Shown piece by piece: positions 53,631-63,752 of a stretch of 64,000 nucleotides of DNA (positions within the stretch are counted from its first letter, which is position 1; each line of letters opens with the position of its first letter). The notes beneath the pieces were generated by a model, which saw only the letters and a list, made by a program, of their open reading frames with translations, did no database searches and was not told where the DNA came from. The translations under genes and the position numbers were made by a program. The stretch comes from Moniliella sp. 'wahieum' (lineage: Eukaryota): assembly GCA_003971905.1 (NCBI GenBank), contig RSEE01000061.1, forward strand, positions 1-64,000, read 5' to 3'.

Positions 53631-56451
53631 TTAGTGAGCCCCTCCATCTTCTAGGCCAAAAGGAGTCGAGTGATGTGAACCAGTACTGCGCGGCTCTGGG
53701 AGAGAAAGGAGAAGTTGGTTGGCATGGTGTTGTTGACGCATCTCGATTGCCATACGGAGCGAATGAGGATGAGGTTGAGAATTCGTTGACGGATTCGACA
53801 GTTGGCTCAAACCCACAGAGGAAGTCGAAGTCGCGGCTAAAGGGGCTTCGTGGACCGAGCTGGGTTTGACACACCGAAGAGGAAACTGGAATGTTGCCAG
53901 CGCGGATGGGTTCAGGTGTGCATGCTGGGGCGGCGGAGCGGCTGCTTGGACCGATAGGAAGCCGTATCGCCAGGATACCGAATGCGACCCGTCCTCAGGT
54001 GGAGCGGACAAGGCGCAACTAGTCAAGGCCATGGGATCCATCAGCTCCGCATGGACGACTTCGAGGAAAAAACTTTGATGGAGCTGTTGTGGCTGCCCGT
54101 TTTGGACACAGGTAGCCACCACCGTATCTGCCCTCCCTCCCCTGGCATTGTAGGCGTACCAATGAGCGTATCATCCCTGTCATCACTCCATCGAACCCAA
54201 CTGGGTGCCTCCTTGACTTCATATGAGGCCTGAATACCGTCGCTCGGCCCGATAGGGTCCCAGATCCGCAACTTCCACGCCCATCGTTGGTTCAGGCACG
54301 CTCGGGTCGGCCCTCCCGCAATCCGACGAGTAAACTCGCGAAATTCCCACCCTCCCTCGGGACGCTTGCGCGCATCAATAATCCAATTGTGGTTCCCGCG
54401 CGACTTGGCCTTGCGCCCATCTTCATTGAAGCGGGAAATCAAAGGCTGAGACCAGAGGTAGAGTTTGAGTTGTTTCAGGGTCATCTCTCCCTCCAAGTTC
54501 CCCTTCTGCCGTTGCAACACCCGCTCGTGGAACGCCTTGGTAAACGCATTGATCCGGAACCGGAACGGACGAAAGTCGGGTGATTCGTCCAGTCGAGCCA
54601 TCCGCTTGGGCATCAGAGTTGTAGACAGGCTCCCCCGCGCTATTCTTAAAGTCCACTGTTGAACAGAGAGGAGAAAAAGGAGGGTCAGAATGGACATCGT
54701 CCGTGTAGCAGAAAAATAGAGGGTTTACTCACAGTCAGAACAAATCTCATCGAGGAGCTCGAGGAGAACCTCATCCAACCAGAGCCGTAGTTCAGGATTC
54801 ACGGAGGAAGCCACCGCATCACATTCAAGATGGGTATCGTCTAAAATGGGAGAGGGAACGCCAGGGGGACCCTCGGAAGCGCAGTGCGCAGGAGAGATGG
54901 GGCCATAACGTATGAATCAGACGCGGCGCGCATATGCGCCGTAGGCGTAACCACGGAGCGGTGGTAATGTGGGCGGCGGCTGATTCGCGCTGAATCTGCG
55001 TCTGGACGGTACTCTGTCCTCTCAGGTCGGATGGGGCCCGTGTCACATCACCAAGCGCCTGAGAGACATTGCATTGGTAATGGGAAGAATTGAAGGCGGA
55101 ATCGCCCCGACTAAGGTGTTGCCAAAGGAGGAGGGGTGAAGGAGGCAGTGTTCCACTGCTATCTCTTCCGTGGGTGGTGTTGGTACTCAAATCGTTTGTA
55201 AGCACTGGTTCGGATGAATTCCCACCAGGAGCTGTAGACTCCACAGCTAAAGGCAGATGAGGGGAGTCACTTGCGTTCGAGGAGGGAAGTTTGAGACCGA
55301 GAGAAGGAGGAAGTCCATCGGACGTATTGCCAGTCGCGGGTGGAATAGTGCGGTCAAATGGAGCTAATAGCCCATCCATTGGCAATGTCTGGGGAATGGA
55401 AACATTGTGAACCCCGTCTTGTAGACGAGGGAATGACGCAGTGCGCCCATGCTGATGTGGCTAGAACGTAAGAACTTGACCAAGCCTGGGTCCATGCTGT
55501 CATCATCATCACTCGCTCGCCGTTTGCCCAGCCCAGGAGAATCGAAGATAGGTACATTAGCAACTCTCTCACCTGGGGTAGGCATAGCTGTCGAGGGAGC
55601 GCTCATGGCCGGACAGGCTGCCGACGGTGTCGACGGTCCAGCGCCCATTACATGCGATGAAGCAGAGCAAAGTTCCGGCAGATGGGTGTTCGATGTGCCA
55701 CCGTTTAAGACTTGATCCAAGGCATGCTGCAGTTGATCCAGAAATCGTTTGCTCTGCATATGCTCGCCGTTGCGAAAGTGAGTTCGGGCCGATGTGGCAT
55801 TTAGGACGATGTGGTCCATCAGCAAGCCAAGGTGTCCCACCGACGGATTGCCGTCTCCTCGGAAGGTGACATGAGTGATGATGTGGCAGATGCGGTGTCT
55901 GTTGCAACTGGCAACGGCGGTGCTGTGGAGGGATGGAAGGGCGATTGCACGTCTATTCCCTCGCCTAGGGGAGTGTGCTGGAGATGCATGGCTGCAACAG
56001 CCTGAGCAAACCCAGGAAACTCGGCCTGGCCCAGGGGCACAGCCGCGGGCGAGGAAAAAGCAGGAAGACTAGCAGCCGTACCCAGGGCCCTCTGTACGTC
56101 ATCTTCGAACACAGCCTCGGGGACATTGGAAAGAAAGGAGCAAGCCGGGTCCGAGGGGCCTATTCCATTGGCCGGATTATTGGGCGAATGACTGTGGGGG
56201 TTGATCGGCTGGGCAGACGGGGGTGGTGGGGTGGTTTGGGCTGTGGTGCGGCTTGGCCCGAAGGGTATATTAGGGGCTGGGCGGGAGGAAATGCGATGGG
56301 AACGGTGGAAGAAGCGTAGAGGCCGGGCGGGGCGGCGGGCCAGCGGGCTTGCGGCGGTCAAGGGACATGGTGTGGCGGTGGCCACACGGGCCACCAAGAG
56401 AGGAAACAGCGTGTTGGCGGGAACGGCCGAGGGCAGCTGGCCTGCACCCAT
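53631..56451 (-). CDS. Uncharacterised protein with a basic globular domain followed by an Ig/cadherin-like beta domain
   Basis: Colinear minus-strand ORFs at 55819-56598, 55364-55840, 54825-55385, 54041-54697 and 53631-54122, with an intron near 54.67-54.73 kb. Globular-looking segment FRPFRFRINAFTKAF...YLWSQPLISRFNEDGRKAKSRGNHNWIIDARK, then WKLRIWDP...PSWVRW...LIGTP. Both ends uncertain. Confidence 0.65.
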
Positions 56452-57284
56452 TCTGGTGCGCTGGGCTGGTTCTGGGAGGTAGGGGCGGCAGGGGCGGAGG
56501 GATGGGCGGACAGAAGACCAGGAGGGCGATGGCGATAGCGAAGACGACGGAGGGCCCAGAAGAAGGCCGAATGCAGAGGGGCGCTTGGCAGCTGCCACCC
56601 TCCACGTCCACTACGGGGGTGCGATGACTGATTATGACTAGCTGACTGAGCTGGAAGCCGGACTCGAGCGGCTCAGACGGAGCGCCAGGTCTCGTCGCTC
56701 TTGCATTGGTGCGGCTGCCCTTGTGGGGCGGTGGTGCGCCTTGGCCCCCGAACGGCGCAGCGCAGCGCAGCCGCACAATATATTCACCTGGCGTGTGCTC
56801 TATGCAAGGGGCACCCCCCTCGGCCTTGGGGCGCCACAGGCTGCAATTAAACACGCACACTGCCCCCTGCGTGCGCTGCCACCGCTTACTGTGTCCATCC
56901 ACACCCCCCGCCTGCTCCACTGTGGCGGCGCAGGATTCAGGACCCCCGTCCTTTCCGCTCGCTCACTTCCGCACACTGACTCGGCGCTTTCTGCCCGCTG
57001 GAGGCACTAGTGACGTGGCACAGGCGTCTAACCCTATGCCCCCCGTTCGCCGATTCCATTCTGACATAAGCGTGGAAGGGCTGTCTCGGCACTGCGCCCG
57101 CCTGCGCCAAGGGGTCACGTGGCAGCTTCCAAGAAGAAAATTTGCAGGTGGAGGCAACCTACCGAGCAGCACGATAAAAGGCGTTTGCGGGCGGCCCAAT
57201 TGCCCCTCAGCCCACCCTCCCATTACCGCCATCACCCATCGCCCCCAGCATCCATCTCTTACTGGTAAGTTGTTGGCCTTCTCT

Positions 57285-57416
57285 CTTTATGATGTCTTCA
57301 TCTTCCTTGCCCGGCCTATATGACCATGCCGAAACGACAAGGCGGCGTCTCGTCGGCGCTACGTGCTTCGGCACGATTGTTTCTTCGGTGCTTGCCAGCA
57401 CCTCGTTGTCTGATCC
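57285..57416 (+). ncRNA. snR190: Box C/D snoRNA, snR190-like (intron 1 of host)
   Basis: C-box-like ATGATG at 57289-57294 and D box CTGA at 57410-57413. Internal TCTTCC..., GACCATG...ACGACAAGG and CTTGCCAG recall yeast snR190 (from memory). It sits immediately upstream of U14, as in yeast. Confidence 0.6.
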
Positions 57417-57565
57417 TTCTCATTTGCATCATGCATCGTTGCTAACCTCCATTGCCTTTGATTGCTAGCTTCAACCCACATTCTCCCTCCTTCGCCCTTT
57501 GGTCGAGGAGCCTGCACAAAACCAACAACTGGTATGTTTGCTCGCCGTTCTCGCAAGGCTGGGTT

Positions 57566-57855
57566 GTCGATGATCGATACACCTGGTATCCAACCAAATT
57601 CGCAGTTTCCACTGTAGGGCACGCAAGCCACCCCTCGTGGGTGGGGGCAATAGTGCTCCTCTTGGTCGAGAGGACTCGTGCTTTTCGGCATGTCGGTGGT
57701 GTCCATCCCCTCTGGCCTTCGGTGCGGGGTGGGGGCGTGTACGAACCCAGTTATGCGTCTCCAGCGGCCCGTGAATTGGTCCGTTTGCATTGACCTCGAG
57801 TTGAAGCCTGCCTTGCCCAGTGACGGCCCACAGACCTTCCTTGGAAGTCTGAGAC
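57566..57855 (+). ncRNA. U14: U14 (snR128) box C/D snoRNA with expanded Y domain (intron 2 of host)
   Basis: Domain A ATTCGCAGTTTCCAC (57598-57612); Y-loop TACGAACCCA (57740-57749); domain B plus D box ACCTTCCTTGGAAGT-CTGA (57834-57852); terminal stem GTC/GAC extended by GGCTGGG/CCCAGCC; degenerate C box GATGATCGA. Confidence 0.92.
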
Positions 57856-58649
57856 TTCCCAGCCTGCCCTCAATGATGCATTTGCTCAAACGATTGGGTG
57901 TACTGACCGATCTGTTTATGTCCAGACTCCTTTCTCGTTTCCTTCACGGCCACCCTGTTACTGACGTTGCTCTATTCCGGTAAGTCTTCTCGATCATTTA
58001 GTCATTGACCACTGTTCATCAGGCTTCCCAATGCCCTTATTTGTGCGAATGTTATGGGCTTCAGAAGCATGGCGTGGAATACACTTTGCCACACAGTTTT
58101 GACATAGCTGGGTCCAGTTCAGCACCCTCTCCAGGCGAACCTTCGTCTCGACAGTGGTGTGCCTGTTGTGCTTCAGGAGCGTGGGAGGCTTGACAAATCT
58201 GCGATGCCAGTGAGATCCGAAGTCCGGGTTGTCCTCGAGGGTGGCGCAATCCCACTCGTGGTGGTGGCTGTAGTCTAAGCAAACAACGCCTTCAGAGGAA
58301 CATCAAGCAGCCCGTCGCCACTAGGGGCTTGGCTGCGGAACAAGGAAAACGGATAACTCCTTAGTAGGCCTGAGGAAGGACTGAAGGGACCTTGGGCCAA
58401 AGCACGCTAACGAGCAACCCGCGGTAGCTCAACGTATGCAACTACTAACGCTCTCCTACACGTCGGCCCCTCACCGTGCTCACCTCCCCGCGACCTTTCC
58501 TTGACCACTTCTGGATCCTGCTACAATTGGAACAAAGATCGATCATCTCAATGCGACCAAAAACCCGTCAGACAAGAAACGCTGCGCCACAGAGCACAAG
58601 CGACAATGGCATTGTAGAGTAGAACCAGACAGACACGTCCATCCGGAAC

Positions 58650-59465
58650 AAGGGTGCAAAAATATTCCCTGCCCCCACCCCAAGCCCAAGGGCCGAGGCA
58701 GAAGGCGAGCAAGGCGAGCACGCAGCTCTAACACGGCTAAACGCGAGAGCACTCCCACTCCCCACCTCCCATCACCCGCATGGGAGGCGAAAAGTAAGAG
58801 TGCTGGCGACCACTCAGCCCCGAGGGCGCCGTGCTGCATCCACCGAGCAGGGAGATCAGGAGTCTAAGCCAAGCAGAGGATGAAGGGCAGGCGGCCTTGC
58901 GGCTCCACCTGCCAGCCACCCTGCAAGGCCCTCTGAAGGCACAGTCCACGCTTTAGCTTGTTCCCCACCAAAGGGTTGCCCCCAAGGAGAGAACTTTCTG
59001 GTCGCCGGCCGGCACGACCAGGGGTGCGGACCGAAAACGGCAGCAAAGCTGGAAAGTCGCACCCGATAGACACCTCAAGGCATCAACTGGCAGAGGATAG
59101 GCGTGGCGCGATACCGACATGAATGCCTGGTGCGGTCACTCCCCACCCCCCTACCCAAAAGGCCAAAGCCATGAGCGAGGAATGAGGAGCACGAGGATCG
59201 TCGAACCAAGGAACGTCCCCACAGGGGACGCCACAAGTGGAACGACGCATGCTCGCCGGCTTGCCCGTCCCTAATCCGGTAGAGGAGCGCACCGGCCCGC
59301 AAACCAGACACCCAGGACCAGTCGGCGGCTACGCAATTTGGTTCAACCTTAGGGTTAGGATCGTCTACGCCCCCCGTCGGTCCGCGCCGAAGCGCAGCGC
59401 CAGACGGGGAAGTGCAGATCGATGTGGGTGCCCGACTTGGGAGAAGAGAAGCAAGAGGATGGCGG
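58650..59465 (-). ncRNA. Candidate telomerase RNA (TER)
   Basis: Minus-strand CCUAACCCUAA (59349-59359), complementary to TTAGGG repeats, directly preceded by a long hairpin capped by cUUCGg (59360-59423). Downstream are a pseudoknot (59058-59064/59022-59028 crossed by 59042-59053/58945-58958), an enclosing helix (59428-59463 with 58915-58942), distal multi-stem domains and AUUUUUG at 58657-58663. No credible ORF. 3' end uncertain. Confidence 0.78.
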
Positions 59466-59793
59466 CGCGAACGCGCTTTTATCCTGCTGGCTCCGCCGCG
59501 CAACCAGACCGCCGGACACGCGATGAGGCACGGGGGCGTAGACATGGCGGCCAGCGACGCCAACCCTAGAAATGATTGCGTAATGCACAATAGGGTTGCA
59601 TGCAGTTCCACGTTACCAAGCGTGGCTCCGCGATCATACCATCCGGTAAGGCGATGCTGACGCGCTGACGCATGCGCGACCTGCGCACAGACCGCCTGTC
59701 GGCCTCAGCAAACCACTTGCGCCTTCCCATCTGCGTTTGTGCCGCCACCACCACCTCTTTGTTTCTCGCCAGCGGGGTTACCGCAGTACCACA

Positions 59794-60446
59794 ATGGGCA
59801 AAACCGCATTGATTTTCCTTGCCGACGGCTCGGAGGAGATTGAGTTTACCACCACATATGATGCTGGTGTGCGTAGTCATCTGGCCTGGTGCCCAGCCCT
59901 GCGAGGCGGCCTGTTGACCTCCATAACGTGTCAGTCCGTGCCGGCGTTTCTGTCACGTCCGCTTATGTGGGCAACCGGGGAGTGGATGGCAGAGCAAGAA
60001 GCCGGCTATGCCACCTGCTCGCGTGGGGTTAAGATTGTCCCGACCTCTACCTCACTGATCTGGAGGGCGTAGGGTACGACGCGTACATTGTCCCTGGTGG
60101 AATGCCTGGGGCTGATACGTTGGCGAACACTCGGAGGTGACGGCGTTGCTTAAGGCAGCCTATGATCAGGGGAAGGTGGTCGCCTTTATTGTGCTGGCCC
60201 CCTTGCGGCCAAGGCGGCGGGCATCACGGGCAAGTCTCTCACCTCCCATCCCTCGGTCAAGGCGCAGCTGCAAGGACTTCGTTTACTCAGAACAGCGCGT
60301 GGTCAAGGCGGACAACCTATTACTTCCCGAGGCCCTAGGACCACTTTGAGTTTGCTCTGACAATTGCTGAAGCCCTTGTGGGCAAGGAAAAGCGACAGGA
60401 GATCGTACCGCCCATGATACTCCCACCTGGCTGGCCTGAGGCCTGA
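59794..60446 (+). CDS. DJ-1/PfpI family protein (PARK7/YajL-like)
   Basis: MGKTALIFLADGSEEIEF; CSRGVKIVP; YDAYIVPGGMPGADTL; GKVVAFI(C)AGP (frameshifted); TSHPSVK; YSEQRVV; GPGT-like segment, then FEFALTIAEAL. One intron. Confidence 0.9.
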
Positions 60447-60833
60447 TGGGGTTGGAGACCCCGGAGGGCGCCCATCGACATTTCATGCTTACGTTTTCTG
60501 ATTTTGGTTCCTAGGACTACAAGAAAGTAGGGGAGTGGGATCAATGAGAAAGGGGATTGGTACGGGATGACACGTAGGAAGCAAAGCAGGAAGGTTTGGG
60601 GCAAGCAGGAGGCGCAGGTAAAAAAATTAGGCCGAAGGGTGTTATAACCGGTTTTGCCGTGGCTGTTTGGGGTTGCAGCAACGGGGAGGGCATGGCCACG
60701 AGCACGCGAGGTCTCTGACCCAACTCGAATTGCATCGAGTACATATGAAGGCTAGAGGCTGCAACAAAGAAAACAGAAAAAATGGTTGGCACCTGTTGAA
60801 CGTGTGAAGCGGGCCAACTTGAGGGTACGCTGA

Positions 60834-63296: not shown

Positions 63297-63752
63297 TTAG
63301 GCAACGAGGGTCGAGGCCGTAGCCGACTCGTACTTGAAGGTAGGGGGCACGGCGCCCTTGGCCTTGTAGTAGCGCGTGAGGCGGTGGATGCGCGACTCAA
63401 TGAGAATCAGACGGAACTTGGAGTCCATGTCCTTGCGGTTGCGCTCGAGGTGCTTGCGAACCGACACGGCCTTCTTGATGAGGTGGTACAGGTCCTCAGG
63501 AATCTGGGGCGCGAGACCCTCCGACTTGAGGATACGAAGGATCTTGTTGCCCGTGACAAAGCGGACCTGGGCAATGCCCTGCGAGTCACGCAGCTGCACA
63601 CCAATCTGCGAAGGAGTCAGACCCTTGCGCGCCAGCTTGAAGATCTGGTTGGCGACCTCCTCCGGGGTGGCCTTGAGCCACGAGGGGGGCGAGCGCCTGT
63701 AGGGCAGCGCCGAGGACGAAATGCCCTTACCCTTTCCGTACATGCGACCCAT
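63297..63752 (-). CDS. RPS13: 40S ribosomal protein S13 (uS15)
   Basis: Intact 151-aa [21 protein letters not shown]...[16 protein letters not shown]...[20 protein letters not shown] 5'-UTR intron at about 63758-63829 ends 5 nt before the ATG. Confidence 0.98.

Follow-up and report, generated by a model that had tools for sequence, protein, structure and literature searches.

A probable telomerase RNA gene beside a divergent DJ-1 gene in a fungus of the Ustilaginomycotina

Does the minus strand between an intronic snoRNA host transcript and a DJ-1 gene encode a telomerase RNA (TER), and if so, how would such an RNA be made? A first-pass annotation of the window (the whole stretch of 64,000 nucleotides analysed here) had read this locus as the TER gene of the organism, and every motif that it quoted lies on the minus strand where it had been placed. 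Our analysis points the same way: the minus-strand locus at ~58652-59465 is very probably the TER gene of a fungus of the Ustilaginomycotina. The evidence observed here comprises motifs, their order, folding statistics and one public-run contig covering the whole unit. Judged from sequence, TER appears to be the best reading of a template, an abutting boundary helix, a triple-helix-type pseudoknot and a terminal Sm-type site, each with a single occurrence and arranged in a known order. The elements and their neighbours are as follows.

59483-59476, minus: GATAAAAG, a possible TATA-like box, position confirmed
59434-59463, minus: outer 5' arm of the first-pass annotation, its duplex not distinguished from other partners
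59424-59433, minus: 5' strand of the predicted inner core-enclosing helix (GGGCAC and CCAC), in the centroid fold of 59465-58652
59423-59360, minus: template boundary hairpin, 64 nt, with a UUCG loop, ending flush with the template
59359-59349, minus: template CCUAACCCUAA, an 11-nt CCCTAA permutation that includes the UAACCCUAA core of Ustilago TERs
59066-59348, minus: structured linker from template to pseudoknot, containing the compensatory pair 59243/59203
59064-58950, minus: H-type pseudoknot, hand-built, with a U-rich loop 1 and a U-A run in stem S2
58915-58949, minus: 3' strand of the predicted core-enclosing helix, GUGG and GUGCCU directly after S2
58666-58913, minus: distal domain, a GCAA hairpin and a multi-stem arm, CR4/5 equivalent by position
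58663-58657, minus: Sm-type site AUUUUUG, near the probable 3' end; the X1 contig ends at 58652
59794-60446, plus: DJ-1/PfpI gene, divergent, with assembly frameshifts; weak Pfam PF01965 matches, E 0.00062 and 0.23
57265-58450, plus: intronic snoRNA host transcript, convergent with the candidate; splice signals at 57265, 57532, 57980 and 58434
57289-57413, plus: snR190-like RNA; sub-threshold Rfam snR190 match, E 3.1, with splice and box motifs
57562-57856, plus: U14-like RNA; sub-threshold Rfam matches to the 5' and 3' halves of SNORD14, E 5.7 and 7.9

Template, boundary hairpin and public-run contigs

On the minus strand, the hairpin, template, pseudoknot, enclosing strand, distal stems and Sm-type site follow one another in the order of fungal TERs. 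The template CCUAACCCUAA, already noticed as a TTAGGG complement, is present as a single exact copy, and neither strand of the window has a longer CCCTAA permutation (11 nt; the next has 9). By itself it is weak, with 36 of 100 window shuffles yielding a match at one mismatch. It is unpaired in the centroid fold of 59428-58652 and partly paired in other folds. The long hairpin described as abutting the template was borne out: none of 500 shuffles was equally stable, and it ranks 5 among 7992 windows of 64 nt. Additionally, the contigs of both public runs carry no substitutions in it.

These two runs (X1 and X2; one study, library type unrecorded, shares 0.07 and 0.06) were compared with 57200-60500; the runs listed included none recorded as RNA. 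X1 provides a 776-nt contig, 775 letters of which lie on 58652-59428 with 21 substitutions and 10 gap letters, 9 of them placed (~97% identical); it includes the boundary hairpin, template, pseudoknot, distal arm and Sm-type site. X2 provides a 248-nt contig on 59183-59428 with no substitutions and two gaps. Further contigs match U14, 58284-58390 and the first part of DJ-1. The candidate has contig depths of 32.3 and 43.5, against 100 and 216 for U14 and 2.3 for DJ-1, figures that are not a measure of level; the bins flanking the candidate are without contig cover. Although this pattern is suggestive of RNA libraries, neither the gaps nor the depths carry evidential weight. The U14 contigs end 13-30 nt short of the ends of that RNA, and contig ends are thus not equated with RNA ends. 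Collectively, the X1 and X2 contigs hint at a discrete RNA; they are a hint rather than proof because they hold no information on strand, ends or level and because both runs come from one study. With the single occurrence and the order of the elements, the covering contig nevertheless supports the TER reading first proposed.

The assembly carries single-base errors, including two insertions (59281 and 59291) common to both runs, and the fine structure given here may accordingly contain a one-base error. Across the whole window, frequent single-base deletions disrupt most frames (DJ-1, KGD1, AP-1 mu-like), as is typical of an unpolished long-read assembly.

The X1 substitutions were also set against the predicted fold and a null, using this one 97%-identical copy and comparing strands. 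Six of the 21 fall on unpaired positions, seven keep a pair and eight break one, so that the structure-conservation test on X1 was null (8 of 21 pair-breaking, null mean 8.65, P 0.47). Six variants at 59151-59162 resemble a shift of one base between two runs of G; their post hoc removal left four unpaired, seven kept and four broken of 15, again a null result (5.04 expected, P 0.37), and the plus-strand fold likewise gives 4/15 pair-breaking substitutions. Within this overall null, X1 has a compensatory double change from C-G to U-A at 59203/59243 (P 0.035), and two changes from G-U to A-U occur in pseudoknot loop 2.

Pseudoknot, enclosing helix and distal domain

A pseudoknot had been claimed for the locus with no position given; we place a predicted one at 59064-58950. 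In stem S1, which is present in the local minimum-energy fold, 59064-59058 pairs with 59028-59022. In stem S2, 59049-59042 pairs with 58958-58950 through eight pairs and one bulge, three consecutive pairs being U-A. Loop 1 is ACUUUCCA, and two hairpins are inserted in loop 2. The pseudoknot descriptor, made after the locus had been seen, gives three matches in 128 kb (both strands), including the candidate. An alternative pseudoknot, GACUUUC/GAAAGUU, was judged by eye and dropped, its loop 1 not being U-rich.

The strand following S2 could close the core. Pairing of 59433-59428 with 58942-58937 and of 59427-59424 with 58949-58946 gives ten possible pairs, and this predicted inner helix may bring the template and pseudoknot together, as described for the N. 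crassa TER in the available text of PMC3592445. The motifs from which a longer enclosing helix had been proposed lie at 59463-59457 (GCCAUCC), 59433-59428 (GGGCAC), 58942-58937 (GUGCCU) and 58921-58915 (GGGUGGC), all on the minus strand. Of that proposal, the inner 10 bp are possible, whereas the long arm to 59463 does not rise above nearby windows: its duplex with 58945-58912 has -26.5 kcal/mol, and the six best of 101 nearby windows are better, at -29.3 to -32.8. The mature RNA may start 3' of the outer arm; both public-run contigs end at 59428, which lies downstream of that arm.

In the distal domain, the GCAA hairpin spans 58913-58886; a 25-bp helix (58804-58748) belongs to the multi-stem arm, which is possibly closed by 58853-58845 with 58675-58666. 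The domain is a candidate CR4/5 equivalent by position only. A scan of it for P6.1, four base pairs closing an NUNGN loop of 5 nt, found no exact form; near forms have loops of 6 nt (58744) and 4 nt (58694), and P6.1 loops of 4-5 nt are known in Taphrinomycotina (PMC3592445, available text). GNRA loops had been assigned to distal stems. One such loop, at 58900, is distal, whereas another, at 58979, lies inside pseudoknot loop 2. The Sm-like AUUUUUG is present as described, 5 nt before the end of the X1 contig, and shuffling 58652-59428 20,000 times placed an AUUUUU no more than 20 nt from an end in 31 cases. The interval 58670-58484 has no consensus 5' splice site that would allow spliceosomal 3'-end cleavage.

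Folding of an 841-nt stretch gave z -4.96, none of 20 shuffles being equally stable. For 58652-59428, z was -4.7 on the minus strand versus -2.3 on the plus strand (15 shuffles each). The 25-bp distal helix has -43.1 kcal/mol on the minus strand and -27.2 on the plus strand, since its G-U pairs form on the minus strand only. In windows of 150 nt the fold signal is patchy, and three across the candidate fall below z -2.5.

Neighbours, biogenesis and known telomerase RNAs

The neighbours had been mapped as a snoRNA cluster on the left and DJ-1 on the right, and the weak PF01965 and sub-threshold Rfam matches place them so. The U14-like snoRNA is ~290 nt long, and a long insertion separates its two conserved halves, which is why Rfam scores them separately and below threshold. 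Versions in the X1 and X2 contigs are 97% and ~90% identical, and an exact-pattern scan of metagenome contigs with a U14 22-mer gave 0 loci. In the third intron of the host transcript (57980-58430), three low-depth, diverged X2 contigs match a block at 58284-58390 and end near CUGA at 58380; the block has no Rfam family or protein match and is possibly another small RNA. A minus-strand intron at 58483-58333 was rejected, the antisense of the snoRNA host transcript explaining it better. Farther along, 63297-63752 (minus) is an intronless gene, presumably ribosomal protein S13-like, whose exact sequence is without a match in the protein collection.

No sense-strand gene lies upstream of the candidate, and ~330 bp separate it from the divergent DJ-1 start. 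Minus-strand ATG frames in this gap showed no family match where tested; three frames overlapping the candidate gave no Pfam family at E < 0.5, a further frame stood at E 0.5, and of 17 candidates for a downstream 102-aa frame none came within an E of 1. Pol II TATA boxes stand ~30 nt from the start. The sequence GATAAAAG (or GATAAAA), of which the window holds four copies, lies 13 nt from the start of the outer 5' arm; since this is tight for a Pol II TATA box, an RNA start near 59440-59450 would be as likely as one at the start of the arm. The inference that the locus has a promoter of its own thus finds support in anatomy only, namely the divergent DJ-1 and the absence of a sense-strand gene upstream. 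If the locus is a TER gene, stand-alone transcription appears likely from the sequence. The gap also contains, at 59570-59690, a palindrome similar to ATTACGCAAT and repeats of TGACGC, which in our estimation resemble bZIP stress-factor sites.

We propose the following mechanism. RNA polymerase II would transcribe the minus strand from the ~330-bp region shared with DJ-1, yielding a mature RNA of ~780-815 nt whose 3' end, to judge from yeast and Ustilago TERs, would be set by an Sm ring just beyond AUUUUUG. A short helix would tie the bases 5' of the boundary hairpin to those 3' of the pseudoknot, juxtaposing template and pseudoknot. TERT would then align the telomere 3' end on CCUAA, copy the template to add TTAGGG, and stop at the 64-nt boundary hairpin. 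Base triples may arise between the uridines of loop 1 and the three U-A pairs in S2, and the distal arm may take the CR4/5 role.

Comparison with Ustilago and Malassezia TERs was by features described in the papers cited. UmTER of U. maydis, 1291 nt long with the template UAACCCUAA, carries a 5' monophosphate and ends 9 nt after an AUUUUU; it is processed out of the 3' UTR of the Emi1 mRNA (PMC9564094); most templates of the Ustilaginales have 11 nt (PMC10035886). The candidate shares with the TERs of Ustilago and the Ustilaginales the UAACCCUAA core, the 11-nt template, the boundary element and a template-pseudoknot domain followed by a distal domain. As in UmTER, an AUUUUU stands a few bases from the 3' end, where a canonical 5' splice site is absent. 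In contrast to UmTER, the candidate has ~0.8 kb rather than 1291 nt, lacks Emi1 or any other upstream sense gene, and neighbours DJ-1 and a snoRNA host gene; it is not, like an mRNA-derived, Ustilago-type TER, part of the 3' UTR of any conserved coding gene on its own strand, its upstream neighbour being the divergent DJ-1. The Ustilago-type promoter word ACGCGAA is absent from 59300-59900, where CGCGAA occurs once, on the plus strand. The putative Malassezia TERs (~500 nt) lie downstream of NDK1 on a common transcript and upstream of a DUF1115 gene, an arrangement that suggests a coding-gene origin to its authors (PMC12506658). Like them, the candidate is compact and has at least three U in pseudoknot loop 1, an AAUUUUU-type Sm site and a TTAGGG-derived template; unlike them, it is longer and divergent from DJ-1 rather than part of an NDK1 transcript. 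The N. crassa TER is without a canonical Sm site (PMC3592445), and its 3' end is formed by spliceosomal cleavage (PMC9564094). The candidate resembles the TERs of N. crassa and other Pezizomycotina in its predicted core-enclosing helix, its boundary element and a pseudoknot with a helix inserted in a loop, whereas the Neurospora RNA is much longer and has a 4-bp P6.1 with an NUNGN loop, not found here (PMC3592445).

Both described basidiomycete cases are linked to an mRNA, and a different biogenesis, overlapping with TER identity, has to be weighed: the TER could be cut from a longer precursor that carries a short upstream ORF or from an intron of a small host gene. An ATG at 59545 starts a 156-codon frame running across the template, and the RNA could lie in an intron running from GTATGA (59639) to AG (58521) with a branch-like motif at 58572; the shared contig end at 59428, downstream of the proposed 5' arm, would also fit. 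Yet the 156-codon frame is without a Pfam match and is frameshifted by the two insertions common to both runs, no contig joint among those listed skips the candidate, and DJ-1, in the opposite direction, sits between the candidate and the next minus-strand gene. We consider a precursor unlikely and retain stand-alone transcription as the preferred reading.

Phylogenetic setting and the remaining readings

The KGD1 fragment of the window has its best named relatives at 75-76% identity (Pseudozyma, Ceraceosorus, Violaceomyces, Tilletia, Malassezia), and one other relative at 87%. A tree was built from this one gene fragment with 38 rows (37 hand-chosen of the 120 matches listed, plus the window) and 308 columns. 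The window is sister to the 87% relative (100/100), and their long branch falls within Ustilaginomycotina (100/96), grouping with neither Malassezia nor the Microstromatales representative; the root position within the subphylum is weak (90/86). This one-gene phylogeny suggests that the organism belongs to its own branch of Ustilaginomycotina. The genus may be Moniliella. Within the literature covered, which leaves most subscription journals outside its scope, no TER for this branch was found, and basidiomycete TERs are described for Ustilago relatives and, computationally, for Malassezia only. The Kwoniella telomerase RNA is stated to be unidentified in the available text of PMC11185503.

The locus would be a further member of the known TER family, from a branch not sampled before. 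A subphylum-wide covariance model needs an outgroup, which a TER from a third deep branch would supply, and the locus bears on whether the release of TER from an mRNA goes back to the ancestor of the group or arose by later fusion.

A TER gene might also be idle or a relic, a reading that overlaps with TER identity, if chromosome ends are now kept by repeat arrays or retroelements. A precedent exists in the Microstromatales, which have lost TERT and TTAGGG telomeres (PMC13234504, available text). Against it, X1 has a single substitution in 159 nt of core elements (59042, in the terminal S2 pair) where ~3 are expected, a difference that is suggestive only (binomial P ~0.16, by hand), and the organism is not grouped with Parajaminaea in the KGD1 tree. 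We find a relic doubtful. Equally speculative is that an intact, stand-alone, TTAGGG-templating TER persists under ends capped by non-canonical 40-bp arrays that lie beyond decayed TTAGGG, as a living intermediate toward repeat-array telomeres independent of the Microstromatales; were this true, mRNA-derived TER biogenesis would not be universal in Ustilaginomycotina. If such arrays are true chromosome ends, the locus offers a handle on telomerase loss.

A structured, Sm-bound noncoding RNA of another type (snRNA-like or lncRNA), with its template-like 11-mer arising by chance, could account for the missing canonical P6.1, and 11-nt matches at one mismatch are frequent in 64 kb, as the window shuffles showed. 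Within the contig span, however, an exact 11-nt template arose in only 19 of 20,000 shuffles of 58652-59428 (a 9-nt template in 378). Moreover, the 11-mer abuts the 5' hairpin of the span flush, and the U-rich pseudoknot stands directly before the enclosing strand. In the Rfam scan of the window, a tRNA alone reached gathering score; at E up to 10 the candidate had no TER-like match and no spliceosomal or other family. Exact-pattern scans gave 0 loci for a template-spanning 22-mer in metagenome contigs and 0 loci for homologs in viral contigs. We judge such an RNA very improbable beside a TER. That the stretch is no more than GC-rich intergenic sequence, or a repeat element whose hairpins arose by chance, is scarcely credible, since the whole-span z, strand bias, motif order and coincident contig speak against it and a sequence look-up gave no look-alike stretch, even though just three of the 150-nt windows of the candidate have z < -2.5 and values down to -4.5 occur in coding or intergenic windows elsewhere.

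Among such windows, 56300-56449 (plus), unrelated to the candidate, has z -4.5 and overlaps a minus-strand reading frame. Two telomere-like words were also seen: UUAGGG lies within a stem at 59274, and X1 differs from the window at the tip of the 25-bp helix (58771-58780, minus), where its contig reads a telomere-sense word that complements part of the template. Both are probably due to chance.
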